In this document: positions 9,305-64,000 of the stretch, piece by piece
How positions within the stretch are numbered: position 1 is the stretch's first letter
How the letters are laid out: each line of letters starts with the position of its first letter
Assembly (NCBI GenBank): GCA_965112635.1
Contig: OZ218778.1
Span: 243,666-307,665, forward strand
Origin: an uncultured bacterium
GTDB lineage: Bacteria > Oederibacteriota > Oederibacteriia > Oederibacteriales > Oederibacteriaceae
Direction: 5' to 3'
DNA: 64,000 bases
Position numbers and translations under genes: made by a program
Notes under the pieces: model-generated
What the model was told of the DNA's origin: nothing
What the model saw: only the letters and a program-made list of their open reading frames with translations
Databases searched by the model: none

Positions 9305-10229
9305 ATGTTCCCCTCCAAAGTCTATCTATTCATTTTCACACTGCTCCTATTATCCTTGACCAATCAGGGCCTGTGCCATGTGATACCCACTACTCCTAAT
9401 GATGACTGGAATCCAGTTTCCACCGGCCCCATCAACACCTGGACCGCTTCCCTGGAACCCGCCGGGGAACTTAACACTCAGCTCTTTGTTTTTTACACCA
9501 TGACCACGGGATTTTATGACGGGGCGGGAAAGTTCTGGTCATTGCCGGATAACACCACCAAGACCCAGTTCCAGGAGCAGCTGTTCCTCCAATATGCTAT
9601 CAACCCTATGTTTGAAATGGATGCCCAACTTTCCACTTTTCAAAATACGCTCAAGGTCGGCGACCAGACTTCCTATTATAGTGGCCCGGGTGACTCGATC
9701 TTCTTTTTGCGTTATGCCATCGCCACCGAAACTCATCCTTACCCCTTCCTGACCGGCGTACTCCAGCTCAGGGTTCCCTCGGGCAATTTTCTTAACCAAA
9801 CCTCCACCCTAAGGACTTCTGATCTCACCGGCACGGGAAGCGTGGGCAGTGGGTATGGGGTTGATGGCCACCAAAAAACTCAAACCATTCTTGCTGCATA
9901 CCGACCTCATCTACAATGTACCCTTACAGACCCAGACCAATATCACTTCTATTAACTACGGCGACTCCGTGAATTATGACCTGGGTGCCGAATACTTTAT
10001 GTCCTACGGATTTAACCTGTCCATGGAGATGAATTATATCTACGAGGCCACTGGCAGTATTTATGGCTTATTCACTCCCGGCGTTTCGGGTAACTACCTC
10101 ATGCTGACCCCGGGACTAGGCTGGGCCGTAAAAAATACCCAGTTACTACTCGGCTATCAATGGGGACTCTATGGCGTCAACACCGATGCCCTAAGTTCCT
10201 ATGTCTTTACCGCCTCGGCTCCGTTCTAA
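9305..10229 (+). pseudogene. putative outer-membrane beta-barrel protein, reading frame broken at an A6 run near 9874-9879
   Basis: signal peptide MFPSKVYLFIFTLLLLSLTNQG, C-terminal aromatic residue; two overlapping ORFs (9305-9955, 9849-10229) rejoin if A6 is read as A5. Confidence 0.5.
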
Positions 10230-10267
10230 AAAAACACTCGTCGGACAAAACTTAAGGAGGCAAAATT

Positions 10268-10684
10268 ATGGCAGGTTTAGTAAGATTTGGCGTATCCCTG
10301 GAAAAAGAACTTCTCAAAAAATTTGATCGACTTATCACCCAAAAACACTACACCAACCGCTCCGAAGCCCTGCGCGACCTCATCCGGGAAGAATTGGTCA
10401 AAGAACAATGGAACCAGGGAGACGAAGTGGCCGGCGCCATTACCCTGATCTACAACCACCACCATAGAGACCTGACCGATAAATTGACTAACATTCAACA
10501 TGATTATGGAGACTGCATCCTGTCTTCCCAGCACATCCACCTAGACCACCACCACTGCCTGGAGATCATCGCGGTCAAAGGGTCCCCCAGCCAGGCGCAA
10601 AAACTGGCCGACACCCTCCACGCGGTTAAAGGAGTCATGCATTCCAGCCTCAGCATGTCCACCACCGGCAAAGAAATACATTAA
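10268..10684 (+). CDS. nikR: nickel-responsive transcriptional regulator NikR
   Basis: 138-aa ORF: ribbon-helix-helix N-terminus (RFGVSLEKELLKKFD) plus His/Cys-rich C-terminal domain (HHHRD, HLDHHHC). Confidence 0.9.
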   Translation: MAGLVRFGVSLEKELLKKFDRLITQKHYTNRSEALRDLIREELVKEQWNQGDEVAGAITLIYNHHHRDLTDKLTNIQHDYGDCILSSQHIHLDHHHCLEIIAVKGSPSQAQKLADTLHAVKGVMHSSLSMSTTGKEIH

Positions 10685-10816
10685 ACCGTATTTTCACTCG
10701 TAACTCCCAGTCCATATCTCCTCAAAAATAATGACCCTCAAACTCTTGACAGACCTACTCCTATGTGTTACTTTTCCAAAATTCGTGTTACTAATTATAC
10801 AAGAGGAGGATTTAAG

Positions 10817-13009
10817 ATGATGAAAAGCAATAAAACCAGGTTTTCCTTGGTCGGTTTTATTTTTTGTTCGCTATTGTTGTCCAACCCTAGCTGGGGGCAG
10901 GATGGCGCCAACAGCACCCTGGATGCATTGCGTCATGACAGCAGCCCTGCGGCAGTTACTAAGAGCGCTATACCTGTAAGTGTGACCAAGACCGCTGCAA
11001 CGGAGTCAACCGTGGCCGGTGAAGAAGTAGTGGTTAGAGGCAGGGCTGCCAACTTGCTGGGACTGGCAGACTCGGCCATGCAGGGCAGTGTCAGCCAGGA
11101 AGACCTGAGCCACCGTGCTTTGCTCAGGACGGGAGAAGTTATGGAAGCCGTACCCGGACTGCTCATCACACAGCACAGTGGTGACGGCAAAGCCAACCAG
11201 TATTTCAGCCGAGGTTTTAATCTTGATCACGGCACTGATTTTTCATTCAATGCTGATGATGTTCCTATTAACCTGCCCAGCAATGCCCATGGTCAAGGCT
11301 ATACAGACCTTAATTTCCTCATTCCCGATCTGGTTAAGGAAGTGAACTATTCCAAAGGACTTAATAGCGTTGAATACGGGGAATTTAATACCGCAGGCTC
11401 AGCCAATTTTGTTTATCCCAATACTCTGCCCCAAAATATCGCTTCTCTGACCATGGGAGAATGGGGATATCAGAGAGGGCTTTTGGCCGCATCCAACCCC
11501 TTGGGGTCAGGGAATTTGTTGTACGCCGTGGAAGTTTGCGGTTATGACGGTCCCTGGGATGTCCCGGAAGATAATAAAAAATATAATGGATTGCTTCGCT
11601 ACAGTTATGGAAACTCAGAGAGCAGGTGGGCGATCACGGCATCCCTTTATCAGGCTGCCTGGACCTCCACTGACCAGGTCCCGCAACGAGCGGTGGACGA
11701 GGGTCTGATCGATTTCTGGGGCAGCCTTGATCCGACTGATGGCGGTAAGACAAAACGCTACAGCGTTTGGGCAAGCTGGAATGGCCAATCCCAGGACTGC
11801 CAGTCCATGGTCATGGCCTATGAAACCTATTTTCATATGAATCTTTGGAGCAACTTCACCTATTTTACTGACGATCCTGTTCACGGCGACCAGTTTGAAC
11901 AGGAAGATGAGCGGTATATCACCGGCGCTAAAGCCAGGCAGATATACAACAACACTATCGCCGGGCTGGCCATGAAAAATGAGATCGGCGCGGATTTCCG
12001 CAATGATGACGTGCCCATCCTGGGCCTTTACGATACGGAGGCTCATATTCCGTGGCAAACCGTCCAGCTTAACCAGATGGTCCAAACCAGCGGAGCTCCC
12101 TATGCGGAAAATACCACTTATTGGACACCATGGCTGAGAAGTATTTTGGGATACCGTCACGACTTCTTCCATTTCAAAGTTAACGGTGCTACTCCTGCTA
12201 CCAGCGGAGAGGCTGATGCCAACATAGCCGAACCTAAGGTAGCCCTGGTGCTGCGGCCTTATGAAGGGCCGGTGGAGCTGTACGCCAACTATGGCTGGGG
12301 TTTTCACTCCAATGACGCGCGTATCATTGCGCCGGATGCTTTAAATCAGTTAAGCATTATGGGCAACAATGTGAACACCGCTCCCCTGGTCCACGCGGAG
12401 GGAGAAGAAGTAGGCGCCCGTTTCGGCTGGCAGAATTTATTTGAATCCACGGTATCTTTATGGCGCCTGCATCTGGATTCTGAATTGACTTTTGACGGAG
12501 ACGCGGCCGCTCCCAGTCCCAATGGGCCTTCTACGCGTAATGGGGTGGAATGGTCCAATTCCTTGAGGCCTAAACCCTTTTTCCTGGATTTCGACTACTC
12601 CTGGTGCCAGGCGCGGTTTGATCAGACTGCGTTAGATGATGATGGAGAGCACCCGGGTGAGTATGTGCCGGAGGCTCCGGTAAACATGGCTACAGCCACT
12701 TTAGGCACTGATCCCATAGAAGGCTGGTCTGCGGACTGTCGTTTGCGTTACTTTGGGGCAAGGCCGCTGGTACCGGATAATTCGGTGCAATCCAGCGACC
12801 TGACACTGGTAAGTCTTCGTGTCAGCCGTCAGCTGACGGAAAATCAATCCATTTTCTTCGATATTTTTAATCTTTTTAACCAGCGGGGTTATGATATTTC
12901 TTATTATTACGCCACAAGCGTACAGTCGGGAGCCCCGTCGATCCCGGACATAAACAGTAAACCCGCTGAGCCGCGGTCTTTGCGTGTGACCTGGCAGGAC
13001 CGTTTCTAA
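10817..13009 (+). CDS. TonB-dependent outer-membrane receptor, probably nickel/metal uptake by context
   Basis: signal peptide, plug-domain-like region, ~700-aa barrel ending in F; GAGGAGG RBS before ATG at 10817 (track ORF starts at 10763). Confidence 0.85.
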   Translation: MMKSNKTRFSLVGFIFCSLLLSNPSWGQDGANSTLDALRHDSSPAAVTKSAIPVSVTKTAATESTVAGEEVVVRGRAANLLGLADSAMQGSVSQEDLSHRALLRTGEVMEAVPGLLITQHSGDGKANQYFSRGFNLDHGTDFSFNADDVPINLPSNAHGQGYTDLNFLIPDLVKEVNYSKGLNSVEYGEFNTAGSANFVYPNTLPQNIASLTMGEWGYQRGLLAASNPLGSGNLLYAVEVCGYDGPWDVPEDNKKYNGLLRYSYGNSESRWAITASLYQAAWTSTDQVPQRAVDEGLIDFWGSLDPTDGGKTKRYSVWASWNGQSQDCQSMVMAYETYFHMNLWSNFTYFTDDPVHGDQFEQEDERYITGAKARQIYNNTIAGLAMKNEIGADFRNDDVPILGLYDTEAHIPWQTVQLNQMVQTSGAPYAENTTYWTPWLRSILGYRHDFFHFKVNGATPATSGEADANIAEPKVALVLRPYEGPVELYANYGWGFHSNDARIIAPDALNQLSIMGNNVNTAPLVHAEGEEVGARFGWQNLFESTVSLWRLHLDSELTFDGDAAAPSPNGPSTRNGVEWSNSLRPKPFFLDFDYSWCQARFDQTALDDDGEHPGEYVPEAPVNMATATLGTDPIEGWSADCRLRYFGARPLVPDNSVQSSDLTLVSLRVSRQLTENQSIFFDIFNLFNQRGYDISYYYATSVQSGAPSIPDINSKPAEPRSLRVTWQDRF

Positions 13010-13037
13010 CTAAATAATTAAGGAGGAAATTAACTAG

Positions 13038-13661
13038 ATGCAGACTATTTTGCAAAACTTGGCTCTGATCGGGGACGTCTGGGTCATCTACCTTTTGATC
13101 GCCGCAAGCCTGCTTTCTTTGGCGGTCATGGTGGAAAGATGGATGGTCTTCTCGCGTAACAGGGGAGATGTCACGGTTCTAATGGACGGATTAGGCGAAC
13201 GCCTGGAAAAAAAGGATATCAAGGGGGCTCTGGAATTTACCCGTGGTTTTCCCAATGTGGAGGGCAGGGTTGCCGTGGCGGGACTGGAGCATTTTTCCAA
13301 AGGCGCGGCTTCCGTGGAAGAGGCCATGTCCGCCAGGATCATCCGAGAGCGGAAGCATTTGGGGAAAAAACTGATCATCCTCAGCACGCTGGGCAATAAC
13401 GCGCCCTTTATCGGGTTGTTCGGGACCGTGCTCGGTATCATCAAAGCGTTCAACGACCTTGCGGTCAGCGGAAGCTCGGGGGTGTCCGTGGTCATGGCCG
13501 GCATTTCCTCGGCTCTGATCGCCACGGCATTCGGCATCGCGGTGGCTGTCCCCGCCGTCATAGCCAATAATTATTTCCGCAACCGGCTCAACGAGGTCAG
13601 ATCCAACGCCGAAGAGGTGTCCAAAATGCTTTTGCTTTACATCAAAGCGCAGGGAAAGTAG
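13038..13661 (+). CDS. exbB: MotA/TolQ/ExbB proton channel protein
   Basis: 207-aa membrane protein with ExbB/TolQ-like TM helices; AGGAGG RBS. Confidence 0.85.
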   Translation: MQTILQNLALIGDVWVIYLLIAASLLSLAVMVERWMVFSRNRGDVTVLMDGLGERLEKKDIKGALEFTRGFPNVEGRVAVAGLEHFSKGAASVEEAMSARIIRERKHLGKKLIILSTLGNNAPFIGLFGTVLGIIKAFNDLAVSGSSGVSVVMAGISSALIATAFGIAVAVPAVIANNYFRNRLNEVRSNAEEVSKMLLLYIKAQGK

Positions 13662-13670
13662 GAGGAAGCC

Positions 13671-14069
13671 GTGCAAAACTCTGAAGACGAACAGGAAATA
13701 GTCGGCGGCATCAATATCACGCCCATGGTGGATATCACCCTGGTACTGTTGATCATTTTCATGGTCACGGCGACCTTTATGGCGCAATCAGGCCTGAAAG
13801 TGAACCTTCCCAAGGCGGTCACTACCGAAGCGGCTTTCACCGCCAGCCTGACCGTAACCCTGGATTCCAAGGGTTATCTCTATCTGATGAAGTCACCCAT
13901 AGATGAGAAAGGTCTCAGGGCTGCCCTGCAGCACGAAGTCAGGCTCAATCCCGGCGTGAAAGTTACCATTGCCGCAGACAAGAAACAATATTATGAGCAG
14001 GTCATCCATATCCTGGACCTGGTCAAGCAGGCGGGTATCAGTAAAGTGGCGCTAGCCGCGGAAAGGTAG
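13671..14069 (+). CDS. exbD: ExbD/TolR biopolymer transport protein
   Basis: 132-aa ORF, single TM then periplasmic domain; GTG start with GGAGGA RBS. Confidence 0.85.
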   Translation: MQNSEDEQEIVGGINITPMVDITLVLLIIFMVTATFMAQSGLKVNLPKAVTTEAAFTASLTVTLDSKGYLYLMKSPIDEKGLRAALQHEVRLNPGVKVTIAADKKQYYEQVIHILDLVKQAGISKVALAAER

Positions 14070-14075
14070 GGCGGG

Positions 14076-14684
14076 TTGTTTTCTGTTTCCGGTGTGAATG
14101 GTGGGTGGCAGGACCCTGGAAGAAAAGATTTTTATCTGGGCGCCGTGGTGTCATTGGCCGTGCATCTGGCGCTGCTTGCCATTTTTTACTGTTTATTTTC
14201 CTACCTGAAGAACAGCGCGCCTGTGTCCATGGACCTGGACCTTTCCGTGGCCCCTGCTGTGGTTCCCTTGAGCCGTCCCGTGAAAAAAGAACATGTGGTT
14301 CCGCCCCAAGCCTGGGTGGCGCCTAAAGCTGGGATAGCTCCGACACCCCAAAATGTAAGTGAAACCGCCCAGCCGGTGGAAGAACAATATGTGCCCTCAG
14401 CCGTTACAGCGCTCAAGCCCCGCTGGTTAGACGGGTTTATTACCGATGAGGACTACCCGCCGCAGGCGCGGAGCAAAGGGGAAAAGGGAACGGTCAAGGC
14501 GGAAGTTTTTATTGATGCCTCAGGTATGGTCAAGGATCTGAAAATAGTCCAGGAAAGTTATCCTGCCTTGAATGAGGTGGTTTTGCACAAATTAAAGGAT
14601 GCCAAGTTTACGCCAGCCCGTGATGCCTCGGGAAAACCTGTGCCCTGCAAGATGTTGCTGCCCATTAAATTTGAATTGTATTAA
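14076..14684 (+). CDS. tonB: energy transducer TonB
   Basis: N-terminal TM, Pro-rich linker, TonB-like C-terminal domain; TTG/GTG start, exact start uncertain. Confidence 0.7.
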   Translation: MFSVSGVNGGWQDPGRKDFYLGAVVSLAVHLALLAIFYCLFSYLKNSAPVSMDLDLSVAPAVVPLSRPVKKEHVVPPQAWVAPKAGIAPTPQNVSETAQPVEEQYVPSAVTALKPRWLDGFITDEDYPPQARSKGEKGTVKAEVFIDASGMVKDLKIVQESYPALNEVVLHKLKDAKFTPARDASGKPVPCKMLLPIKFELY

Positions 14685-14766
14685 GATAGTTCTTGATTAT
14701 GTTCAGGAAAAAGCTATTACCAAAACAGTGAAGCCATCCTGCTGACTTTATGAAAGGATAAATTTT

Positions 14767-15786
14767 ATGCACATTCCTGACGGATATTTAGGACCGACCA
14801 CCTGCGGATTTTTTTATGTGGTCATGGTGCCGATCTGGATGACCGCTTCCCGCATGGTCAAAAAGACCCTCAAGGCCGGTCAGATCCCTTTTCTGGCCAT
14901 TGGCGCGGCTTTTAGCTTTGTCATTATGATGTTCAATGTCCCCATCCCCGCTGGCTCTACCGGCCACGCGGTAGGCGGCGCCTTGATCGCCATCCTGCTC
15001 GGACCCTGGGGCGCCTGTCTGACCGTTTCCGTAGCCTTGGTCATCCAGGCCTTTTTGTTCGGAGATGGCGGCCTGACCGCCATCGGCGCCAACTGCTTTA
15101 ATATGGCCGTCGTACTGCCCTTTTCTGCGTACCTTATTTACCGGCTCTTGTCCGGCTCCGCCCAAAAAAGTCCGACCAGAAATGTCTGGGCCGCGGGTAT
15201 CGCCGGCTACCTTTCCATCAATATCGCCGCTCTGTGCGCCGGTGTGGAGTTCGGCTTACAGCCTTTGCTCTACCATACCGCGGATGGACAGGCTCTTTAC
15301 TGCCCGTTCGGCTTGAGCGTTGCAGTGCCGGCCATGCTGGGCGGACACTTGCTGGTTTTTGGGTGGATAGAAGGCTTGGTCACCGCTCTGCTGGTCAAAT
15401 ATCTCCAACAGCACTCTCCTGAAATGCTCGCTCGCCCCGCCCTAAAAACTTCCACCAAATTATGGGCCTGTCTTGGCATCCTTGCGGTGCTGACCCCGTT
15501 AGGACTGCTCATCCCCGCCTGGCTCCACGGAGGAGACGCCTGGGGTGAGTGGGCGCCTGAAGAAATACAAAAAATCGCCGGCTATGTTCCCCAGGGCCTG
15601 CAAAAACTTTCCGCGCTCTGGAATGCCCCTTTGGCTGACTATGGTTTTAAAAGCTGGGAAGGAAAAGGATTGGGATACTCAAGCCTAGCCTATATAATAT
15701 CAGCCGTTCTAGGCGCAGCCCTGATCGCTTTTTGCGTCTGGTTATTGTTCAAATATCTCTTCCGGAAAGGCTTTTCCAAAAAATGA
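14767..15786 (+). CDS. nikMN: ECF-type Ni/Co transporter substrate-capture protein, fused NikMN (CbiMN-like)
   Basis: starts MHIPDGYL (CbiM/NikM hallmark); 339 aa with extra C-terminal TM region consistent with an N-component fusion. Confidence 0.85.
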   Translation: MHIPDGYLGPTTCGFFYVVMVPIWMTASRMVKKTLKAGQIPFLAIGAAFSFVIMMFNVPIPAGSTGHAVGGALIAILLGPWGACLTVSVALVIQAFLFGDGGLTAIGANCFNMAVVLPFSAYLIYRLLSGSAQKSPTRNVWAAGIAGYLSINIAALCAGVEFGLQPLLYHTADGQALYCPFGLSVAVPAMLGGHLLVFGWIEGLVTALLVKYLQQHSPEMLARPALKTSTKLWACLGILAVLTPLGLLIPAWLHGGDAWGEWAPEEIQKIAGYVPQGLQKLSALWNAPLADYGFKSWEGKGLGYSSLAYIISAVLGAALIAFCVWLLFKYLFRKGFSKK

Positions 15787-16589
15787 ATTTTGTGGAACGC
15801 ACTATCCTGGCTGCTCTTTCCCTGCTGAAAAATTCCATGTTCGCCGAGGATATCGCCCGCCAAAAAGGGCTCTTACAAACACTGGACCCACGGGTCAAGG
15901 CTGTTTCTTTGCTGGCCTTGATCGTGCTGGTCCTGTTCACCAAAAACTTATGGGTACTGGCTTGTATTTATGGTCTATGTCTGGTCCTGGCTATGCTATC
16001 GAGGATCCGCCTGCTGTTTTTCCTGGAGCGCACCTGGATCTTTATCCCCCTGTTTTCCCTGCTCATCGCCATACCTGCTCTTTTTAGTTTTGTATCACCG
16101 GGCCGGCCTTTGTTCTCCTGGGGGATATGGACCATCACCAGCCAGGGATTAGGCAGCGCCGTCATCTTTATCAGCCGCGTCATCACCTCGGTGTCCCTAG
16201 CCGTGCTTTTGAACCTGACCACCCGTCACCTGGAACTGCTCAAGGTCCTTAGGATATTCGGGATCCCGCAAATGTTCGTCATGATCCTGTCCATGAGCTA
16301 CCGTTATATTTTTCTTTTTGTGGAGATCATGGAAAACACCCACCGGGCCGTGCAGAGCCGCGTCGGCTCGGCCATTCATTATAAAAAAGGTCAGCACCTG
16401 GTGGCCTGGAGCATGGCTGGCCTGTGGAGCCGTTCAGTCGGCCTGCAGGAACAGGTGCACCACGCCATGCTCTCCCGCGGATTTCAAGGCGAGCCGGTCC
16501 TCCTGCACCGCATGAGCACAAGGTTCAGGGACTGGGCCTGGCTGGCCTGCGTTCTCGTCCTGGTAGTCTGTTTGTGGGGAGCGTCCTGA
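15783..16589 (+). CDS. nikQ: ECF transporter transmembrane (T) component NikQ/CbiQ
   Basis: polytopic membrane protein; ATG overlaps nikMN stop (ATGA). Confidence 0.8.
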   Translation: MNFVERTILAALSLLKNSMFAEDIARQKGLLQTLDPRVKAVSLLALIVLVLFTKNLWVLACIYGLCLVLAMLSRIRLLFFLERTWIFIPLFSLLIAIPALFSFVSPGRPLFSWGIWTITSQGLGSAVIFISRVITSVSLAVLLNLTTRHLELLKVLRIFGIPQMFVMILSMSYRYIFLFVEIMENTHRAVQSRVGSAIHYKKGQHLVAWSMAGLWSRSVGLQEQVHHAMLSRGFQGEPVLLHRMSTRFRDWAWLACVLVLVVCLWGAS

Positions 16590-17401
16590 TGAAACCTATC
16601 TTTGAGTTTCAAAAAGTCAGCTATGCTTACCTGGGTAAATTCCCGGCCCTGCGGGACATCACTCTAACTATCCCGGCTGGAAAAATGGTCACCCTGGTCG
16701 GCGCCAACGGTTCGGGCAAATCCACGCTCCTGCAGATGATGGACGGTCTTTTGTTCCCGGACAGCGGGACCATAGTTTTTGATGGCAGACAGCTGGCCAG
16801 CGCTGAACTGGAAAAACAGGACTTTTCCAAGACCTTTAGACAAAAGGTAGGACTGGTCTTCCAGAACCCCGACATCCAGCTTTTTTGTCCTACGGTCCGC
16901 GAGGATATTATTTTTGGTCCGCTCCAGCTGGGGATAGACGAAAAAATAGTGATGAACCGATTGGAAGAGTTGGCCGTAGCCCTTAAACTCACGCCTCTCC
17001 TGGACCGTGCCCCGCATCAGTTGAGCATCGGCGAAAAACGCAAGGTGGCCATAGCCTCCACCCTGGCCATAGACCCTGAGGTTTTGCTTTTGGATGAACC
17101 CACAGCCGGCCTGGACCCCATGACCACGGCTTCCATCCTGGAGATCCTGCTCACAGCCAATCAGTCAGGCAAGACCATTATTACAGCCACCCACGACCTG
17201 CATATTTTAGAGGAGATCGCGGACACAGTGTTCGTTTTCGGGCAGGATAAGACCATCGTCGCGGAAAGCACCCCCGAATCCATACTCAAGGATACGGACC
17301 TCCTGCAAGCGAACAACCTGGTGCATTTTCATCCGCACAGCCATAAAGGCAGGATGCACCAGCATCCCCACCAGCACCCGGACCACCACGAAGGAAGCTA
17401 A
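16589..17401 (+). CDS. nikO: ECF transporter ATPase NikO/CbiO with His-rich C-terminal tail
   Basis: Walker A GANGSGKST, signature LSIGEKRK, Walker B LLLDEPTAGLD; tail HFHPHSHKGRMHQHPHQHPDHHEGS; start overlaps nikQ stop. Confidence 0.85.
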   Translation: MKPIFEFQKVSYAYLGKFPALRDITLTIPAGKMVTLVGANGSGKSTLLQMMDGLLFPDSGTIVFDGRQLASAELEKQDFSKTFRQKVGLVFQNPDIQLFCPTVREDIIFGPLQLGIDEKIVMNRLEELAVALKLTPLLDRAPHQLSIGEKRKVAIASTLAIDPEVLLLDEPTAGLDPMTTASILEILLTANQSGKTIITATHDLHILEEIADTVFVFGQDKTIVAESTPESILKDTDLLQANNLVHFHPHSHKGRMHQHPHQHPDHHEGS

Positions 17402-34204: not shown

Positions 34205-35140
34205 ACATGTCTAGCGTCTTGAACACTCCCAGCGTTGAGGTCAACGGCCTTACGGTCAAATTCGGTAAATTCACGGCTGTGGACAACATCTCCTTCAGGG
34301 TCGCCCAGGGAGAGATTTTTGGGTTTTTGGGGGCTAACGGCGCCGGCAAGACCACGACCATCCGTGTCTTGTGCGGACTCCTCATGCCCACCAGCGGTAG
34401 CGTGTCCGTGGCCGGCCTGGAGGTCAAGCAAAGCCTGCAGGCAATCAAACAAAAGGTCGGCTACATGTCCCAAAAATTTACCCTGTACCAGGACATGACC
34501 GTGTGGAGAAAACCTGGCCTTTACCGCGGCCCTGCGCAAAATTCCCCAGGAAGTCTTTCAACAGCGTAAAAAAGAACTGCTGGAGTTCATTGGCTTCCAT
34601 GAGCCGGAAAAAACTTTTGTCAAAGACCTGGCCGGGGGCCTCAAACAGGAAGTGTCCCTGACCGCGGCCATGCTGCACGACCCTGAGATCGTGTTTTTGG
34701 ACGAACCCACAGCCGGGGTGACCCCGGCCAGCCGCCAGCGCTTTTGGGACCTCATCCGCCAACTCTCCGCCAAGGGCAAAACCGTTTTTGTGACCACCCA
34801 TTACATGGATGAAGCTGAAAACTGCGGCCGTATCGCTCTCATGCGGGCCGGCCAGATCATAGCCCTGGATACCCCGGAAAACCTTAAAAACACGCGTTTT
34901 CCTTATCCTCTTTATGAGATCACCCCCAAACCAGGGGCAGCCCCGGACTGGCTTGACCGTCTGCAAAAGGACAAGCGCCTGGATTTGTCACCTTACGGTC
35001 TGCGTTACCATTGCGCAGTCAAAGATAAAGCAGCTTGGCCGGAAATTTCCACATTTTTAAGCGAGCAAGCCGCTTCCCATCCTATCAAACCGTCCCTGGA
35101 GGATGTTTTTATCCAGCTTGTGGAAGGAGTGGACCGATGA
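34201..35140 (+). pseudogene. second ABC transporter ATP-binding protein, frame broken near 34507-34513
   Basis: Walker A GANGAGKTT in first ORF; Walker B VFLDEPT in ORF 34652-35140; removing one base at tgg-a-gaaaac restores TVWENLAFTAAL. Confidence 0.7.
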
Positions 35141-48369: not shown

Positions 48370-49950
48370 TGGGGAACGGGGAAGGGGGATTGTTAAACAG
48401 CTGGTTGCTCAGGCATACAGGGCTTTGTGGACCGCGGCGAGCATGGTTTCGGACTCGTAGGGCTTGCCCAGGAACCGGTAACCCAGCTTGTCCAATTCGG
48501 GCAGTTCTATCCTGTCGTCCAGATAGCCGCTGCAGACCAGCACCTTGATGCCGGGGTTCTGCCTGCTGACCTCCTCCGCGAGCTGTCTGCCGTCCATGCC
48601 TGGCAGGATCATATCCGTAAAAAGCAGGTTGAATTTTTTCTTTTCTTCTTTAAAAGAGATGAGGGCCTCCTCTGCGTTCTGTGCGGGAAACACAATATAA
48701 CCATGCTTCTGGAGGATGACCGTGCTCAGGGCCAGGTTTTCCGGCTGGTCTTCCACCAGCAATATCCTTTCTCCGGTCCCCCGGCCGTACTCCAGCGCTA
48801 TTTTTTTTGACTCCCTGGGTTCCTCGCTCTTTCTGGTGTCCATAGGGAGCCACACCTTGAACTCCGTGCCCTGACCCGGCTGGCTGGACACATTGATCCA
48901 CCCGTTATGCTGTTTCACGATGCCATAGGTGACCGACAGCCCCAGTCCCGTGCCCTTGCCACGGGTCTTGGTGGTAAAAAAGGGCTCAAATATTTTTGCC
49001 ATGGTTATCGGCTCCATACCCTTCCCGTTGTCTTTGACCGTCAGGCACACGAACTCGCCAACCCGGGCTTCGGATATTTCCAGGGCCTGGCTCTCGCTTA
49101 GAGTGCAGTTGCAGGTCTGGATGAGCAATTGGCCGCCCTGGGTTATGGCATCCCGGGCATTGACGCAAAGGTTCATCAGGACCTGTTCCATCTGGGTCTG
49201 GTCGGCGTAGATGGCCTGGAGGCCCTTATCCAGCTCCAGTTTCAAAGTAACCTTTTCACCCACTGCCTCTTTGAGCATCTTTTCCATATCCTGGACCACT
49301 AGATTCAAGGAAAGGGACTTGGGGGACAGGTTTTGTTTGCGGCTGAACGCCAGCAGCTGACCGGTCAGGGCAGCGGCTTTTTTACCCGCGCCCTTTACTT
49401 CCTCCAGATAGGATTGGACAGCATCCCGGTCATCTTTTTTGATGAGGGCCAGGTCAGAGTAACCGATAATGACATTAAGCAGGTTGTTGAAATCATGGGC
49501 AATGCCTCCGGCCATCTCCCCGATAGAGGCCAATTTTTGGGCCTGCATCAGGCCCTGTTTCAGGAGTTTAAATTCCGTCACATTGGAGGCTATGGTGGAG
49601 AAACCGATGGCCTGGCCATTTTGTCCTTGAAGCGGGGTTATGGTCAAAGCCACCTGGATGGTCTCCCCGTTCTTGCGCAGGTGCTCGGTCTCAAAATGGG
49701 CAATTTTATGGCCTGCGTTGAGTTGCTCTGTAAGCATCCGCATCTCTTCTTTGCGTTCCGCGGGAACCAGTTGTTCCGCAGACATTCCAATGGCTTCCGC
49801 TGGGGAATAACCATAAATCTTTTCCGCACCCCTGTTCCAGCTCGTGATGAGGTTCGCCAAATCCCTGCTGAATATCGCGTTATCCGAGGATTCCACGATC
49901 GTCGCCAGCAGGCGGTCTTTTTCTTCCGCTTTCCGGCTCTCGGTGATGTC
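48370..49950. repeat. paralogous segment (3' part of hybrid kinase plus ~40 bp of 3' flank) duplicated at ~53130-54710; bounds approximate
   Basis: long near-identical protein stretches ([61 protein letters not shown]) and shared downstream GGGAAGGGGGATTGTTAAACAGCTGG. Confidence 0.6.
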
Positions 49951-51559: not shown

Positions 51560-52655
51560 TTAATCTTTTAAAGTGAAATAAAAAACTGTGCCCTTTCCAT
51601 ATTCGGACTCATACCATATCTTCCCCCCATTACGCTCCACGATACGCTTGCAAACAGCCAGGCCCACCCCGTTACCGGGGTACTTGACCCCTGCCAACCG
51701 CTGAAATAGGGAAAAAACCCTATCCTTATACTGGGGTTCTATTCCGATACCATTGTCCTTGATGGAAAAAACAACCTCTTTTCCCTTTTTCCCCGCAGAA
51801 AGATGAACACACGGTGCCTGTTCTCCGCAAAACTTGATGGAGTTGGCAATGAGATTCTGCAAAACCTGAAGAAGCTGGGAGGGGTCGGCCATGACCGCTG
51901 GCAAAGGATCTGTGGGTAATGACCGCTTTATTCTCTAATATGGCCAATTTCAGATTGGCCAGAGCGCCTTTAAGGACCTCCTCGGTATCCACCAGCTCCA
52001 GGGGTTTAGCCTGGGACTCTACCCGTGAGAATAATAACAGACCGTCAATGAGTCCCTGCATGCGGGTAGCTCCGTCTACGGCGAAATTGATGAATTCATC
52101 AGCATCCTGGTCCAGTTTGCCTTTATAGCGTTGCTCTATCAATTGAAGATAACTTACGACCATCCGGAGCGGCTCCTGCAGGTCGTGGGAGGCGATATTG
52201 GCGAACTGCTGGAGGTCTTCATTGCTGCTTTTTAGTTTTAAGGCATATTTCCTAATCTCCTCTTCCTCTTTGTGCCTGGTGATGTCCTCGATGGCCAGAA
52301 GAATGATATGCTCTTTTCCTAATGCTCTCTGAATTTGCCTTGCATTCAAAAGTAAGATGCGCCGGCCAATGGTGTCAAAATCGTGCTCCACCTCAAAATT
52401 GTCAAAGGAGGTCTTTTGAGGAAGGATGTTTTCCAGCAGTTCCCTTAGCTGGGGAATATTCCACTGTTTGTTACCCAGGTCATAGATTAACTGCCCCACC
52501 GTCTCTGCCGGGTTTACCTTAAAAAATTCATAGAAGGAACGGCTGGCGGAGATGACCCTGAGGTCCTGGTCCAGAACGACCAAGGGTTCGCGAATGGTAT
52601 TGATAATGCTTTCGGCGTATTCCTGGGATTCTACTGCTGTTTTTTCGCTAAACAT
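51560..52655 (-). pseudogene. PAS sensor histidine kinase, frame broken near 51905-51925 between HisKA and HATPase
   Basis: ORF 51726-52655 carries PAS and H-box (SHDLQEPLR); ORF 51560-51904 carries N-box/HATPase (QVLQNLIANSIKF, DNGIGI) in another frame. Confidence 0.65.
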
Positions 52656-52901: not shown

Positions 52902-52915
52902 CCCCCCCCCCCCCC
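52902..52915. repeat. C14 homopolymer (G14 on the minus strand) followed by A7, 6 nt upstream of the remnant ATG
   Basis: read directly. Confidence 0.9.
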
Positions 52916-53129
52916 GAAAAAAAGGGTGGAGGTTTCTACAATTAAGTTTAATCCTCTTCCTCTGCATTAGGAAGATATAAAAAAATTATCTTTTGCAAAT
53001 GGATATTGGGCCATTAACCGTCTTAAGAAAGCTGAGCAATATCAAGGGGTTTGCAACAATAGCGCCCCAAACAAGGGTTTTATTGGGTAACATGGATCAT
53101 AATTCAAAAATCCTCCTCTACCTCCCCCT

Positions 53130-54710
53130 TTTCTGTAAAGGGGGAAGGGGGATTGTTAAACAGCTGGCTGCTCAGGAATACAGGGCTTTTTGGACCGCCG
53201 CCAGCATGGTTTCGGATTCGTAAGGTTTGGCTAGGAACTGGAAACCTTGGTTGGTGAGTTCGTTTTGCTCCACGATCTTATCCAGATAACCGCTGGTCAC
53301 CAGCACCCGGATGTTAGGATTCTCTTTTCGGATTTCCTTGATAAGTGCATTCCCATCCATGCCGGGCAGAATGATGTCGGTAAAAAGCAATTTAAACCCT
53401 TTTTTCTCTTCCTTGAACGCCCTGAGGGCGTCTTCTGCATTCTCAGCGGGAAAAACAGTATAACCTTGTTCTTCGAGTATCTTGGTGGCCAGGGCCAGAT
53501 TGTCCGGCTGGTCCTCCACCAAAAGTATTTTTTCACCAGCGCCCCGGCCGTGCTCCAGGGCTATTTTCTTTTGTAGCTTGGGCTCCTGGTCTTTGCGTTC
53601 ATCCCTGGGGAACCATATCCTGAACTCTGTGCCTTTCCCAGGCTGACTGGACACATTGATCCACCCGTTATGCTGTTTCACGATGCCATAGGTGACGGAC
53701 AGGCCCAGGCCCGTGCCCTTGCCCCTGCTCTTGGTGGTAAAAAAGGGGTCAAATATTTTGGTCAGGGTCATGAAATTCATTCCTATACCGTTGTCCTTGA
53801 CTGTCAGGACTATAAAATCCCCGGGACGGGCTTCACGGATAACCTGCGCTTCTAACTGGCCAAGGGACACTGCCTGGGTCTTGATAAGCAGTTGGCCTCC
53901 CTGAGGCATGGCGTCGCGGGCGTTGACGCACAGGTTCATCAGGACCTGCCCTAACTGGTTCTGGTCCGCATATATTCTTTCTTGTCCTTTACTCAAGGCC
54001 AGCGTAAGCACGACGTGTTCACCCACCGCCTCTTTGAGTATTTTTTCCATACCCAGGACCACTTCATTCAGGGATAAGGACTGGAGGGACTGGTTCTGTT
54101 TGCGGCTGAAGGCCAGCAATTGTCCGGTCAGGGAGGCGGCTTTTATGCCCGCGCCTTTTATCTCCTCCAGGTAGTTCCTGGCGGCAGTCCAGTCATTGGC
54201 TTTCATCAGGGCCAAGTCAGAATAGCCGATGATGACGTTGAGCAGGTTGTTGAAATCATGGGCAATGCCTCCGGCCAATTCCCCGACAGAGGCCATTTTC
54301 TGGGTCTGGACCAAATCGCTCTGCAGGCGCCGGAATTCGGTGATATCGGTGGCGATGGTGGACCCGCCGACGACCTGGCCGTTCTTGTCGTAGATAGGCG
54401 AAAGGGCCAGCATCACCTGGACCCGGGTCCCATTTTTATGCAGGCGCTCTGTCTCAAAGCGCAGTATGGGTTGGCCAAGGTTAAGTTTTTTGGTGATCTC
54501 CAGCATCTCTTCCCTGCGTTCCGGAGGGACCAATTTTTCCGCGGACATGCCGATAGCCTCCTGGACGGAATACCCATATATCTTTTCCGCGCCCTTGTTC
54601 CAGCTCAAAATTATTTGATGATGGTCCCTGCTGAATATCGCGTCACCTGAGGATTCCGCGATGGTGGCCAGCAAGCGGTTTTTTTGTTCGGCTTCCCGGC
54701 GCTGGGTAAT
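53130..54710. repeat. second copy of the paralogous hybrid-kinase segment (see 48370-49950); bounds approximate
   Basis: same shared protein stretches and 3' flank. Confidence 0.6.
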
Positions 54711-56507
54711 ATCTTGGACATAGTTCACAAAATAAAGGATAACTCCCGTGGAGGGCTTGCGCACTGCAGCCACAGACACATTGGCCCAAATAATCCGGCC
54801 GTCCTTGCGTAAATACCGCTTTTCTAGGATGGCATTGTCAGCCTCACCCTCCGTCATGCTCCTCATGGCTTTTAACCCTATTTCATAATCTTCCGGATGA
54901 GTGATGCTGTTAAAGGTTTTGCCTAAAAGCTCATTCTCACCAAACCCCAGCATTTCGTTCATGGCCCGGTTGACCCTGAGATACCGGCCTTCAATATCCA
55001 CTAGGCTGACCCCGACCACGGCGTTTTCAAAAGAGGTCCTGAAAAGCTCCTCGCTCTCGGCCAAGGCCTTTTCAGCTTGCCGGCGTTCAGTCACATCGCT
55101 CATAAAATTGAGCGTAGCCAGCCGGCCCTGCCATTCGATCCTGACGGCGTTTATCTGCACCCAGCGCAGCTGGCCCGAAGCGGTCAGGATGCGGAACTCA
55201 TATATTTTTTCCAGGTCCTCCCCAGCCAGCCGTCTCAGGTGGTTTGCCGCGACCATGGCCCGGTCTTCCGGATAGATGAAATCAGTGAAAGGATGGCGGG
55301 ATATCTCTTCGGGTGGATATCCCAATTCCCGGACTGTGGCCTTGTTCACGAAAACCAGTTTGTTGTCCTGGGCCACCATGATCATTTCCTGGGAATTTTC
55401 CACGACCTGGCGGTATCTTTTCTCGCTCTCCCGCAGTGCTTCTGAAGCTTTCCTGAACTCGGTAATATCCCTTGCCGAGCTGAGCGTCCCGGTGATGCGC
55501 CCCTCCTCATCATGGACAAGGGAGTTATGAAAAGCCAATAAACGCCTGTCTCCTTGTTTGGTGACCACAAAATTCTCAAAATATTCAACTGGCTTGATAG
55601 CGCCGGAGATGATCTGGTCAAAAACAGAATGGACAGCCTGATACTCCTCGGGAGTAACGCAGGTCTTGAACCAGTCCTTGCCCAGGAGCTCTCCCTCCTG
55701 GTAACCGAGGAGTTCGTGACCCTTACGGTTGAGGAGCACGACCTGGCCCTGGGTGTCCAGCACCACCATCAATACCTGGGCAACTTCAAGATATTCGGAG
55801 GCTTTTCTTCTTTCGGCCCTTAAATACGCCACATCCTTCTTGCGCAGGGTCACATCGTTGGCCATGGATATATTTAACTTTCGCCCATCCGCGGTCCGGC
55901 CCAAGGCAGTAGATTGAAATTCCCAAACCCGGGTCTTCCCGCTTTTCGTCTTGACTGTGAACTCTCCCTCATTGTACCGGATGCCATCGTCCAGAGAAAA
56001 AAACAGATTTCTCCGGGACTGGACTTTGTCCTTTTTCAGCCCATAGGCAAGCTCAAGCCAAGCATCTAGTGTAGGTATGTCCGCCCGGCTATATCCGGTC
56101 AGTTCTTCCCAAACCTGGTTGACCCGGATGACCTCGCCATCCTCCGCGTAGATCATGATGGGAAACGGTGACAGCTGTATCACTTTTTCCCGCTGTTCCA
56201 GGCTGAGCCTCTCGGCTTTTTCTATGTGCTGGAGCAAAACGACCACGATAAACATGGAAAGGGATAAGGCAAAACGCCTCCCGGTCTCCAGAGGGTCAAT
56301 CGTGCTGGGAACATGGTTTACGAGCATCTGATACAGGGGGGAAAACGCAGGTAAAAGATCAAAACAAGGGCCAAACCCATGAAGGACCAGGAGACTTTCC
56401 TTTTGGACTTGGGCAGGCCCAGGAGGACCATCACCATGGCTATGAGGGCAATGATGGCCGAGGCCACATTGACCACGGTCAAAAACATGGCTGTCCCTCC
56501 TTTTCAA
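53172..56507 (-). CDS. hybrid multi-PAS sensor histidine kinase with C-terminal receiver; N-terminus uncertain
   Basis: multiple PAS, H-box [10 protein letters not shown], HATPase, receiver [10 protein letters not shown]; a 56-aa 2-TM ORF with strong RBS (56318-56488) lies in a neighbouring frame across a C6 run. Confidence 0.8.
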
Positions 56508-56523: not shown

Positions 56524-57219
56524 TTACTGGGCTTCCTTTTGCAGGAGTTCGGACTGCAGGACTGTGATCCTTTTGCCTACCAGGGAAATGATCTTTTTTT
56601 TCTCCAGTACTTTCAGGGCCCGGATGGCGGTCTCCTGGGCCGTGTCCGCCAGCTCGGCCAGCTCGGTCCGGGAAAGCTGGATGTTGAGCGAACCGTCCTT
56701 GGCCGGAGCATAGTCCCGGGCCAGCTTGCACAGCACCTCGGCCACCCGGTTCTTGACCGGCTTTTGGACCGCGCTTTCCAGCCGGGACAGGGTGTCGCCC
56801 ACCTCGGCTCCCATCCGGCTCATGATGTTCTCTCCCAGCCGGGGATCCAGCCCCAAGGCCGCGAATAAAATGGAGCGTTCAATGAAGCAGACCTGGGTTT
56901 CCTCCAGGGTTTCCGCAGAGGTGAAATTGACCTTGCCCGACATCAGCGCGGACACACCCAGCGCATCACACGGTCCGGCGATCTGGACGATCTGCTCGCG
57001 GTCCAGGCGGCCGGTTTTGTAGAGTTTTACTTTTCCGGAACGGATGTGATAAATGCCGTAGGGTTTATTGCCCTCATAAAAAAGGTTTTGTTTGGGTTTG
57101 TAGGTGTTGGTGGTGCGGCCCTTGGCGATATAATCCAGGCATTCATGGTTAAGCCCCTCGAATATACTTCCCTTGTAGCCGGGACATTTGGCGTCACAGG
57201 TCCAGTTTTGATTGACCAT
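56524..57219 (-). CDS. Crp/Fnr-family regulator with FNR-like cysteine pattern
   Basis: cNMP-binding-like fold plus C-terminal HTH (LSRTELAELADTAQETAIRALK); N-terminal C8-x3-C12-x14-C27 plus internal Cys (GPCDALG); AAGGAAG RBS before ATG 57219. Confidence 0.8.
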   Translation of the reverse strand: MVNQNWTCDAKCPGYKGSIFEGLNHECLDYIAKGRTTNTYKPKQNLFYEGNKPYGIYHIRSGKVKLYKTGRLDREQIVQIAGPCDALGVSALMSGKVNFTSAETLEETQVCFIERSILFAALGLDPRLGENIMSRMGAEVGDTLSRLESAVQKPVKNRVAEVLCKLARDYAPAKDGSLNIQLSRTELAELADTAQETAIRALKVLEKKKIISLVGKRITVLQSELLQKEAQ

Positions 57220-60090: not shown

Positions 60091-62094
60091 TTATTCGTAA
60101 CGCAGGGCCTCGATGGGTGATAGCTTGGAAGCCTGCCACGCCGGCCAGATCCCGAATATAATGCCTGTTCCAGCTGAGATAAAGACCGCCAGGAACACCG
60201 TGCCCCAGGGAAGCGAAATAGGCCAACCAGCCAGGACCGCCGTACTGATAGCGCCGCTGGAGCCGATCAAAATGCCGATGAATCCGCCGATCACTCCGAT
60301 CAAAATCGACTCGACCAAGAACTGGAACATGACCTCCATATTGTGCGCGCCGAGCGCTTTGCGCAATCCGATCTCCTTGGTCCTTTCCCTGACCGAAACC
60401 AGCATGATGTTCATGATACCGATGCCGCCCACAAACAGGGACAATAATGCGATCATGCTGATCATGGTGGTCAGAGTGCCGACCGTGTCCTGCTGGGCCT
60501 GCTGGATGTCCGACATATTGCGCACCGTGAAATCATCCAGTTTGCCCGGTTGGATATGCCGAGTGTGCCTCAAGATCTGAGAAACCTCCTGGATGCAGCC
60601 GTCCACGCCCTCCGGCGTTTTGGCGTCCACATCTATATAGTTGATGGTATTGAGACCCAGAAGACGGTACATGGCCGTATGCAAAGGCACGATCACCACA
60701 TCATCTTCATCCCGGTAGGTGGCTCCTTTGACGGGCAGGACCCCCAGCACTTGGAAATTGATCTTGTTGATCTTGATCTGGGTGCCGGTAGGATTGAAAT
60801 CCGGAGGGTAGATGCTCTTGACCACTGTAACTCCCAAAAGGCAGACTTTGGCCCGCTGTTGGTCTTCCTTTTCCGTGAAAAACCTGCCCGTGACCGGTTT
60901 GGAAGCCCTCATATCCTCATAGGTATATTCGCAGCCCGTGACCCGAGTGCTCCAGTTCTGGTCGCCATAACTGACCAACACACCCCCGCCCACACAACCG
61001 TCCACATGCCGGATCATGCTCTCCTGCTGATTGACCTGCCTAAGGTACAGGAGATCCATGAGCGTGAACTTCGGAGCACTTCCCGAACCTCTGGCGTCCT
61101 GGTTTCCTGGGAAGACCATCAAAAGATTGCTGCCCAACGAGGCCAGCCTCTGCTTGACCGCCTCTTTGGCCCCGTCACCGATGGCGGTCATGGCAATGAC
61201 CGCGGCCACGCCGATGATAATACCCAGCATGGTCAAAAAAGTGCGGAATTTATTCAGCGAAAGGGCAATGAGGGCCATTTTGACGTTCTCCAGGATCTCT
61301 GAGAATCCGGGAATGACGGTACTTTTTGGCACCGCTATCTGCCTGTCTTTTACCATGTTTTTGTGTTCCGGCCTGTTCTGAACATCTGAAATGATCTTCC
61401 CGTCTTTCATCGTGATAACGCGGCGCGCATGGGCGGCGATATCAGTCTCATGGGTGACCACGATAAGCGTCACTCCTTCCTCGCGGTTGAGACGGTCCAA
61501 TTCTTCCATGACTTCCACGGCCTGCTGGCTGGAAATATTCCCGGTCGGTTCGTCGGCAAAAAGAATGGAGGGAGAATTGACCAGGGCCCGGGCAATGGCG
61601 ACCCTTTGCTGCTGTCCCCCGGATAGCTGGTGCGGAGCATGGTGGAGCCTGTCGCCCAAACCGACCTTTTCCAAAAGGGTTTTAGCCCTGGCCTGAGGGT
61701 TGGGATGCCGGGCATAAATGGCCGGCAGGGCCACATTGGCTAGCGCTGTGGTCCTGGCGAGGAGGTTGAAGAATTGGAATATAAACCCTATGGCCCGATT
61801 GCGCAGGCTGGCGATCTGATCGTCGTTCAGCTCGGACATCTCATATCCGGCCAGAGAGATGCTTCCCGAAGTTGGCCGATCCAAAAGGCCCAGGATCTGC
61901 ATCAAGGTGGATTTGCCTGACCCAGAAGGCCCGACAATAGCGATATACTCCCCGGCCTGGATATCCAGGTCCAGATGGTCCAGGGCACGGACCACCACTC
62001 CGGACCCTTTTAGTTTTTTCTCGGCGGTCGCGTAGACCTTGCTCAAATCCCTGACTCGGATAAGCGGCCCGTTGCTGCTGGGTGTGGGGCTCAT
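60091..62094 (-). CDS. macB: MacB-type ABC transporter (ATPase fused to FtsX-like permease)
   Basis: Walker A GPSGSGKST, signature LSGGQQQRVAIARAL, Walker B LFADEPTGN; C-terminal 4-TM permease; ATG 62094 preferred over track start 62250. Confidence 0.85.
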   Translation of the reverse strand: MSPTPSSNGPLIRVRDLSKVYATAEKKLKGSGVVVRALDHLDLDIQAGEYIAIVGPSGSGKSTLMQILGLLDRPTSGSISLAGYEMSELNDDQIASLRNRAIGFIFQFFNLLARTTALANVALPAIYARHPNPQARAKTLLEKVGLGDRLHHAPHQLSGGQQQRVAIARALVNSPSILFADEPTGNISSQQAVEVMEELDRLNREEGVTLIVVTHETDIAAHARRVITMKDGKIISDVQNRPEHKNMVKDRQIAVPKSTVIPGFSEILENVKMALIALSLNKFRTFLTMLGIIIGVAAVIAMTAIGDGAKEAVKQRLASLGSNLLMVFPGNQDARGSGSAPKFTLMDLLYLRQVNQQESMIRHVDGCVGGGVLVSYGDQNWSTRVTGCEYTYEDMRASKPVTGRFFTEKEDQQRAKVCLLGVTVVKSIYPPDFNPTGTQIKINKINFQVLGVLPVKGATYRDEDDVVIVPLHTAMYRLLGLNTINYIDVDAKTPEGVDGCIQEVSQILRHTRHIQPGKLDDFTVRNMSDIQQAQQDTVGTLTTMISMIALLSLFVGGIGIMNIMLVSVRERTKEIGLRKALGAHNMEVMFQFLVESILIGVIGGFIGILIGSSGAISTAVLAGWPISLPWGTVFLAVFISAGTGIIFGIWPAWQASKLSPIEALRYE

Positions 62095-62110
62095 AAATTC
62101 CTTTCCTGAA

Positions 62111-63088
62111 CTACTGCGGACGCTGGCGGTTGCCGCTTTGACTGCCGGCGCTGGGAGTGGTCCGGCTTTGCGGACGGCCGAATTGGAACATACCCAGAGA
62201 AGCGGCTCCTTTGACTTTGAGGGACTCCACTTGGACCGAATCGTTCTCATTTAATCCGGACAACACCACGACCTGGCTGCCATCCGAATCGCCCAGCTTG
62301 ACCTCCCGTTTTTCCGGTTTTTTGGCCAGGTCATTCTGCACCCGGAGGAACACCGTGGTATTTTCGCCGCCCTTGACCGCCCAGGAGGGGATCAACAGGC
62401 TGTTATCCGCTTCTTTGATGATGAAATTGATGTTCGCGGTCATCCCGGCCCGGAGCACGCCTGGTTCTTGGCGGGGAATAAGATCAACATAATAACTCAC
62501 CACATTGTTGACCTTTACGGCCTGATGAGTGATCAAAGAAACATCCGCTAAAAATAGCTTGTCTGGATAGGAGTCCACCGTAACCTCGGCTTTTTGGTCC
62601 ATCTTGATATTCGCCAGGTCCGTTTCGTCCACATAGGCTTCGACGATGAGCTTGTCAGAAAGGTCATACAGGTCCGTATCGCCGGCCACGGTCTGCCCTT
62701 CCACCACATTTCGCGCGATGATCAGGCCGTCCGTGGGCGCCACGATAGGGGTCGGCTGGAAAGCCTTCTCCCAATACGATAGTTCATCCTTGCCCTTGGC
62801 CAAGGCCATGTCCAATAGAGCCGCCCTGTCTGACGAGCTCATCCAGGCGATGATCTGGCCTTTTTTCACATGGGTTCCCTCATCGACGAGGATCTTATCA
62901 ATACGGCCCGCCACAGGAGGTAAGATAGAGACCTTATTTAAAGGCGTAATGATCCCGTTGGCCTGAACGGTCTGCTTGAAATTGCCCCTGCTTACCTTGA
63001 CTTTCTGGGCATCCTCGCTCGCATGGTTCCCGCAGCCTATGATGAAAAATACCATGGCCGCAGCCGTTATACAGGTCAAACGTTTCAT
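62111..63088 (-). CDS. macA: MacA/HlyD-family periplasmic adaptor
   Basis: lipoprotein-like N-terminus (ITAAAMVFFIIGC) then adaptor domain; AAGGAAGG RBS before ATG 63088. Confidence 0.8.
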   Translation of the reverse strand: MKRLTCITAAAMVFFIIGCGNHASEDAQKVKVSRGNFKQTVQANGIITPLNKVSILPPVAGRIDKILVDEGTHVKKGQIIAWMSSSDRAALLDMALAKGKDELSYWEKAFQPTPIVAPTDGLIIARNVVEGQTVAGDTDLYDLSDKLIVEAYVDETDLANIKMDQKAEVTVDSYPDKLFLADVSLITHQAVKVNNVVSYYVDLIPRQEPGVLRAGMTANINFIIKEADNSLLIPSWAVKGGENTTVFLRVQNDLAKKPEKREVKLGDSDGSQVVVLSGLNENDSVQVESLKVKGAASLGMFQFGRPQSRTTPSAGSQSGNRQRPQ

Positions 63089-63124
63089 AGAACCTTCCTT
63101 TCTTGGCAAACTTTGTTCCATATT

Positions 63125-64000
63125 TTAAGGTTTAAGCTCTGACTCTAAAGTCAGACCCAAGGCTTTATCAAAACTTACTTTGGCTTGGGCGATATTGAGT
63201 TTATCGGAAAGCTGGCTCTGTTGGGCTGAAGTATAACCTGTTTCCGCCTGCTCAAAATCAAGGTACTGGGCCAGGCCTGATTCATACAAGGCCCGGACCG
63301 TCTTGAACCGCTCTTCCCCAGATTGGACGAGCAAATTGGTGTAAACAGTATGCTGCTGATCGGATACATAGGTGATCCAGGCCTGATAAAGCTGCAATTG
63401 CAAAGACCCGACAAGGTCATCCAGGTTATCTTTACTGGCCAGCCACTGATGGGTGGCCTGCGTGATGGAAGCCTCCTGGCCAAATCCGGAGAATAGGCTG
63501 AAACCTGTGGAAAGACCCACGCTTCCAGGTGGACTGGGTGGGAGGCCAGGAACTCCCATCAGAATAATTGTAGCCGCTGTTTAAATTAAGGGAAGGATAC
63601 CGCGTGGACAAACTGCCGTTCATTGCCGCCTCGGCGGCTTCCACGATAGCCTTTTGCAGCATCAAAGCAGGATTCTCCTCGTACATCCTTTCATACCACG
63701 GCTCGATCTCCTCGGGCGGTTCCGGGGTCTCTAGGTTTCCGGACACCTTGATAGTTTCCTTGATATCTCGCGGTTTACGTCCCAATAAGTAGGCCAAATT
63801 TTTTTGCTGTGAATCCAGATCTTCCTGGGACTGCTTGGTTTGCCATGCTATTTGCGCTTCTTCAGCTTCGGCTTGGAGATAAGCCCAGTGCGCTTCACGG
63901 CCGGATTTATACTGCATCTGGATATAACGGGTATCCTGGTTCAATCTCTCTTTGATGGATTCTAAAAGAACCAGGTTCAACTGGTCATAGATGATCCTGT
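63125..64000 (-). pseudogene. TolC-family outer-membrane factor, partial (5' end beyond window), frame broken near 63510-63560
   Basis: two overlapping ORFs (63125-63559, 63432-63980) both with outer-membrane-factor-like sequence; upstream frame still open at 64000. Confidence 0.65.

Follow-up and report, generated by a model that had tools for sequence, protein, structure and literature searches.

Single-base frame breaks in a 64-kb stretch of bacterial DNA as probable consensus errors of the deposited assembly

Five genes in the stretch of DNA analysed here (64,000 nucleotides, hereafter the window) are interrupted by one-base indels. As judged from sequence comparison, these frame breaks are very probably artefacts of a deposited 2.88-Mb assembly and not mutations of the organism. 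A technical origin is favoured because the differences from other assemblies are indels without substitutions, because the broken genes show no secondary decay, and because the insertions share a hexamer. The sequence-only reading of the window had counted six disruptions; five were confirmed, each of them amounting to one base, whereas the remaining gene, of the Crp/Fnr family, is intact.

The frame breaks and the genes that they interrupt

Six-frame translation revealed five genes that switch frame in mid-gene, and in all five a change of one base restores a single ORF (restoration by a single base had been foreseen earlier, but for only three cases). The frame-broken genes represent 5 of the approximately 55 genes of the window (9%), far above the usual level of a finished genome, in line with the earlier remark that this density is high for a functional chromosome. 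Beyond each break, reading continues in the native frame without interruption as far as the native stop. No further stops, deletions or substitutions were detected in the five broken genes, the DNA of which is otherwise that of the intact alleles. The positions of the indels and of the genes are given in Table 1.

Table 1. Positions in the window of the five indels, the genes that they interrupt and a Crp/Fnr-family gene, with the truncated products in the public record
Feature	Position	Strand	Description
Indel 1 (OMP)	9838..9839	+	AA in window, one A in ENA contig_13894 and Logan ERR11523656_32551; GGGA[A]GCGTGGG
Indel 2 (ABC ATPase)	34504	+	Extra T, CGTG[T]GG, in window and ENA contig_13894; not in Logan ERR11523656_53695
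Indel 3 (sensor kinase)	51911		Extra T on + strand, GATC[T]GTGGG; not in ENA contig_13894 or Logan ERR11523656_1475061
Indel 4 (hybrid kinase)	56336..56341		G6 on + strand in window (C6 on coding strand); 7 in ENA contig_13894 and Logan ERR11523656_15001
Indel 5 (TolC-family)	63523..63524		TT in window, one T in ENA contig_13894 and Logan ERR11523656_164059
OMP gene (outer-membrane beta-barrel)	9305..10229	+	Window: 216-aa ORF (9305-9955) and 126-aa ORF (9849-10229); ENA and Logan assemblies: unbroken, 307 aa
Second ABC ATPase	34207..35140	+	Window and ENA contig: 120 aa and 162 aa; Logan contig: unbroken, 310 aa
PAS-HisKA-HATPase_c sensor kinase	51560..52655	-	Window: 309-aa product (51726-52655) and C-terminal remainder; ENA and Logan contigs: unbroken, 364 aa
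Hybrid histidine kinase	53172..56488	-	Multiple PAS, HisKA, HATPase_c and receiver domain; 1105 aa if unbroken
TolC-family outer-membrane efflux gene	63125..64000	-	OEP-MFP-MacB operon; 438 aa if unbroken; start beyond window end
Crp/Fnr-family regulator	56524..57219	-	231 aa; cNMP_binding and HTH_Crp_2 complete; Fnr model positions 53-242 of 250
Truncated public products			P0002, 216-aa OMP; P0008, 309-aa kinase; P0010, 336-aa TolC fragment; P0006, 162-aa ATPase fragment

The restored outer-membrane protein (OMP) is covered to 89-99% by homologues of 306-320 aa, which align end to end with 37-43% identity. Its junction, GTGAWAVGMGLMATKKLKPFL, is the homologue consensus, and the window product diverges right after GTGS. 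The protein itself gave no Pfam, NCBIfam or PDB sequence match, and its family (PF13557 / MetA-pathway-type OMP) was assigned via homologues carrying PF13557. The break had been placed in the A6 run at 9874-9879. The gene is indeed broken, but the true site (9838/9839) lies 35 nt upstream of that run, which does not vary between assemblies and codes for the conserved Lys-Lys (TKKL) of the intact protein.

The interrupted ATPase gene sits in an ABC-2 exporter operon with the order TetR-OEP-HlyD-ABC-ABC-ABC2-ABC2. After removal of the extra T the reading becomes DMTVGENLAF, and the corrected protein matches ABC_tran over positions 2-137 of 137, spanning the junction, and its whole length aligns to the NodI and DrrA models. 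The break that had been proposed at 34507-34513 is real, although the extra T (34504) is located 3 nt outside that range.

Removal of the extra T from the sensor kinase gene gives the reading AVITHDPLPAVMAD, and in a domain search the corrected protein regains PAS, HisKA and HATPase_c (positions 2-108 of 111). In this case the inserted base falls within the range indicated previously (51905-51925). In the window the hybrid kinase has lost the frame of its N-terminal ~50 codons, which encode two hydrophobic segments, and from the true ATG at 56488 the ORF extends for 56 codons only. The corrected protein regains its N-terminus together with the hydrophobic segments. A break at the C6 run 56336-56341 had been regarded as possible, and it was corroborated by the seventh base found in the two other assemblies, where the G7 run occupies 56336-56342. 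This is the sole break within a homopolymer, and not one of two as had been stated.

The window version of the TolC-family gene ends early, at the stop 63432-63434. The corrected protein contains both OEP repeats and covers positions 3-398 of the 414 of the TolC model. The extra T (63523/63524) again lies where a break had been expected (63510-63560). On the coding strand it reads GGA[A]GCGTGGG, a 10-nt context identical to that of indel 1. The comparison with orthologs that had been proposed showed the restored proteins to be collinear with homologues or family models.

The sixth disruption, described as an FNR-like remnant, was not substantiated, since both domains of the Crp/Fnr-family protein are complete and its sequence is identical in all assemblies. 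Additional frameshifts shared between assemblies were considered in a 207-aa cation-efflux gene and a 242-aa HlyD gene and were rejected, as their Pfam domains are complete and the three assemblies agree.

Comparison with other assemblies of the organism

The locus was located by exact-product look-ups, which were followed by BLAST and a base-by-base walk against contigs from ENA and Logan. A cluster look-up showed that the truncated products of the window are public, and that they occur only on one NCBI contig of 2,876,006 bp. This contig is evidently the one from which the window was taken, and the indels accordingly belong to a deposited assembly. Artificial planting of the indels was considered and rejected, given that an NCBI record contains the truncated products and that the insertions share a motif. 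Intact products were found on a 387-kb contig and/or on Logan contigs. In the gene-position index, exact-product look-ups for the 748-aa TonB receptor, the 216-aa and 309-aa fragments and the 336-aa MFP variant returned no match; the 216-aa and 309-aa fragments are present in the protein collection via cluster membership. A 37-nt pattern across site 1 was absent, with either allele, from the GTDB species representatives. Loci based on HypD reached only 70-75% identity, with many phyla alike, and gave no taxonomic placement; by these tests the uncultured bacterium lacks a close species representative in GTDB.

The 387-kb contig (contig_13894 of ENA ERZ25039471) was aligned with positions 267-64000 of the window. 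Not one substitution was found over 63,734 nt, and there were exactly four differences, all of 1 bp (indels 1, 3, 4 and 5). Just past the end of the window, the ENA contig carries a gene for a D12-class adenine methyltransferase.

Together the Logan contigs (run ERR11523656) span 37,638 nt of the window, and each of the five sites falls within this portion. Apart from the five indels there was no difference and no mismatch, and the Logan allele is the intact one at each site. These alleles serve only as a proxy for reads. The Logan contigs are algorithmically independent of the ENA contig, but perhaps not experimentally so, since both may go back to one set of reads. We infer that reads would back the intact alleles. 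Four of the indels are thus private to the 2.88-Mb assembly, and two of the three assemblies carry indel 2. By type, the five 1-bp differences comprise four insertions and one deletion.

Sequence context of the indels

The hexamer CGTGGG/CCCACG was found at all four insertions. Sites 1 and 5 read GGA[A]GCGTGGG, site 3 reads C[T]GTGGG and site 2 reads CGTG[T]GG. In an unbiased permutation with four random positions, 0 of 200,000 trials gave a 6-mer shared within 8 nt on either side, and 9 of 200,000 did so when 10 nt were allowed. The hexamer is present at normal frequency in the restored window (33 copies), and four copies are affected. The clustering of the insertions at CGTGGG indicates a systematic, context-dependent consensus error. 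Since the context of site 2 is the same CGTGGG as that of the private errors, the insertion common to two assemblies can be understood as a systematic error shared by assemblies made from the same kind of data. The clustering may also hint at a motif for base modification.

The window contains 138 runs of at least six bases, and the 137 located outside site 4 agree between assemblies; nor was any variation observed in the 35 runs of at least seven bases elsewhere in the window. The Dam and Dcm motifs were also considered and were set aside as weakly supported: two of the five breaks are no more than 1 nt away from GATC or CCWGG, for a background of 7.7%, and CCWGG itself is twofold over-represented.

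Origin of the frame breaks and comparison with known systems

One important question is how the indels arose. Errors of basecalling, assembly or polishing would have entered the consensus of the 2.88-Mb contig, and each indel would put a gene that is otherwise perfectly conserved out of frame, with the result that gene callers emit truncated products. The insertions would arise at CGTGGG with incomplete penetrance (4 of 33 copies), and the deletion in a 7-base homopolymer. This pattern is characteristic of long-read consensus errors that are systematic and depend on context, and the platform would have been a long-read one, probably nanopore. The presence of indel 2, in its CGTGGG context, in both long contigs suggests a common type of data behind the two, with the 2.88-Mb contig the less well polished. 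The proposal of indel-prone sequencing or assembly made in the sequence-only reading was supported by the intact alleles found elsewhere, the absence of substitutions, the full-length restored proteins and the shared hexamer.

The types of difference point in the same direction. In bacterial mutation, substitutions outnumber indels about tenfold or more, and hence the probability that four of four differences are indels is approximately 1e-4 or less. Natural divergence would not plausibly give one loss-of-function indel per 16 kb and no SNP at all. Some observations speak against an error. Only one of the five indels lies in a homopolymer and the 137 other runs agree, which is not the textbook homopolymer error profile. 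In addition, indel 2 is found in two of three assemblies and may be a real minor or major allele there.

This last observation leads to the alternative that retains most weight, namely a length heterogeneity within the population, resembling phase variation, in the C6/C7 tract and at the ATPase insertion, from which the assemblers chose different alleles. In its favour are the homopolymer of site 4, which lies close to the 5' end of a gene and is not equally long in all assemblies, and the two alleles of site 2, one of them recurring in two assemblies and the other present in Logan. However, a tract of 6-7 nt is short for a contingency locus, the 35 longer runs mentioned above are invariant, and site 2 is not a repeat and carries the CGTGGG context of the private errors. 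We consider such heterogeneity improbable.

The broken genes might instead be genuine pseudogenes, with frameshifts that became fixed in the strain from which the 2.88-Mb contig derives and that reflect a recent loss of functions in the envelope and in signalling. The public NCBI record contains the truncated products, and all five broken genes are membrane, export or sensing genes, a class often lost adaptively; about half of the genes of the window, however, are membrane or signalling genes anyway. Several results are at odds with this explanation, and it is accordingly given very little credence. There are no substitutions against four indels in 63.7 kb, and no secondary decay follows any of the breaks. 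Four indels per 64 kb would correspond to about 180 loss-of-function indels per genome with zero SNPs. Moreover, selection on function would not be expected to yield a common hexamer context, and the disruptions were not reproduced, four being private to one assembly and the fifth not being present in the Logan contig.

The hexamer allows a further alternative, which appears equally doubtful: the insertions could be real alleles generated by a motif-targeted process or, in a milder version, CGTGGG/CCCACG could be a DNA-modification motif of the organism. The first version would possibly involve error-prone repair at modified or nicked CGTGGG/CCCACG and, if true, loss-of-function envelope and signalling variants would exist in a subpopulation and would have been captured by one assembler. 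If the second were true, the errors would be a by-product revealing the motif. Finally, programmed ribosomal frameshifts or transcriptional slippage yielding full-length proteins despite the breaks are the least credible of all, because, even though the C6 tract of site 4 formally fits the slippery pattern X XXY YYZ, this motif is absent at sites 1, 2, 3 and 5, these genes read in frame both in other assemblies and in homologues, and the arrangement is not conserved.

A consensus error thus remains the preferred explanation, and in all likelihood the frame breaks are an assembly artefact without biological significance. Their value is mainly that of quality control. The 2.88-Mb contig would contain about one gene-breaking indel per 13-16 kb, which corresponds to roughly Q42, and at a uniform rate the number of falsely truncated genes on it would be well above one hundred. 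The 216-aa OMP, the 309-aa kinase and the 336-aa TolC fragment are already in protein collections, some of them as cluster representatives. Pseudogene counts, pathway calls and inferences of genome decay drawn from the 2.88-Mb record would mislead. The record needs re-polishing, for which the clustering at CGTGGG offers a practical clue as to where it should be targeted, and the truncated proteins should not be taken for pseudogenes.

The high density of frame-disrupted genes (5 of ~55) recalls the pseudogenes of reductive evolution. Unlike those, the genes of the window show no substitutions, secondary stops or deletions, have intact alleles in the same population, and are broken in a shared context. 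The hybrid kinase resembles phase-variable contingency loci in that a poly-C tract in its 5' coding region differs by one unit between assemblies, but the tract is only 6-7 nt long and the other four sites are not repeats.

Methylation-linked nanopore basecalling errors are described, in the portions of that literature available, mainly as A/G substitutions. The indels of the window resemble errors at methylation motifs in recurring at one short motif with incomplete penetrance in assemblies of native DNA. They differ from them in being insertions, with no substitutions at all, and the modification of CGTGGG/CCCACG is only a candidate here.

The indels also resemble the indel errors of long-read assemblies. 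As described in the available text of the reports on Kastor (PMC12007338) and Polypolish (PMC8812927) and of PMC8103633, gene-fragmenting indels are a recognised residue in long-read assemblies and MAGs, and the rationale for polishing such assemblies has been set out (PMC12313526). Those errors usually concern homopolymer length, whereas four of the five found here are insertions at non-homopolymer CGTGGG sites. In both cases, nevertheless, the errors are 1-base indels that create artificial frameshifts and truncated gene calls and that vanish when the same genome is polished or assembled in another way, and one of those in the window does lie in a homopolymer.

Truncated products as cluster representatives

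In the protein collection, the 90% clusters that contain the outer-membrane protein (216 aa), the ATPase (162 aa), the kinase (309 aa) and the TolC-family fragment (336 aa) are represented by the truncated products of the 2.88-Mb contig, the apparent source of the window, and not by intact proteins. Since these artefactual products serve as cluster representatives, the assembly errors have spread into downstream protein resources.

The nickel neighbourhood and the paralogous kinases

Gene annotations revealed a coherent nickel/hydrogenase-maturation neighbourhood, in the order hypE-hypD-hypC, the PF13557-type outer-membrane protein gene, NikR, a TonB-dependent receptor, ExbB/ExbD/TonB and CbiM/CbiQ/CbiO. 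Because the broken outer-membrane protein gene lies inside this neighbourhood together with NikR, it is probably a member of a NikR-linked nickel uptake set. A toxin-antitoxin pair was also observed between the glycosyltransferase genes and hypE.

The two neighbouring hybrid/PAS kinase genes (890 and 1105 aa) have paralogous 3' parts, which share ~74% nucleotide identity across 1.6 kb, and the C-terminal ends of the two proteins are similar over the 15 residues compared. The 516-nt intergenic region between the start of the sensor kinase (52655) and the stop of the hybrid kinase (53172) holds a C14 tract directly followed by G and A7. Window and ENA contig have an identical sequence here. Those Logan contigs that were retrieved leave the region uncovered, ending on either side of it at 52542 and 54248. 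The homopolymer is likely a place where further length error or real slippage would occur.

Features at the window ends and the CCWGG motif

At the left end, a 155-aa protein adjoins a Fer4 protein, outside the range of the frame-break finding. A domain search of this protein matched just a cNMP-binding domain and no HTH. The protein may consist of this one domain by nature, or it may be a Crp/Fnr relative in truncated form.

CCWGG occurs 468 times in the window, about twice the 219 ± 15 expected from dinucleotide-preserving shuffles, an excess that may be codon-driven. About 5-7 kb past the right end, the ENA contig carries a methyltransferase locus (L012), from which a genome-wide methylation motif might stem.

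Coordinates of the features described (window positions unless stated otherwise)
Feature	Position	Strand or context
cNMP-binding protein	61-528	(-)
ParE toxin/Phd-YefM antitoxin (88 aa + 88 aa)	5670-6204	(-)
Nickel/hydrogenase-maturation neighbourhood	6430-17401	
Broken outer-membrane protein gene	9305-10229	(+)
Paralogous kinase 3' parts	48375-49944 and 53138-54707	
C14-G-A7	52902-52923	intergenic
IS1595-family transposase, then D12-class N6-adenine DNA methyltransferase (PF02086), unannotated 258-aa protein	1794-3712 of L012	ENA contig
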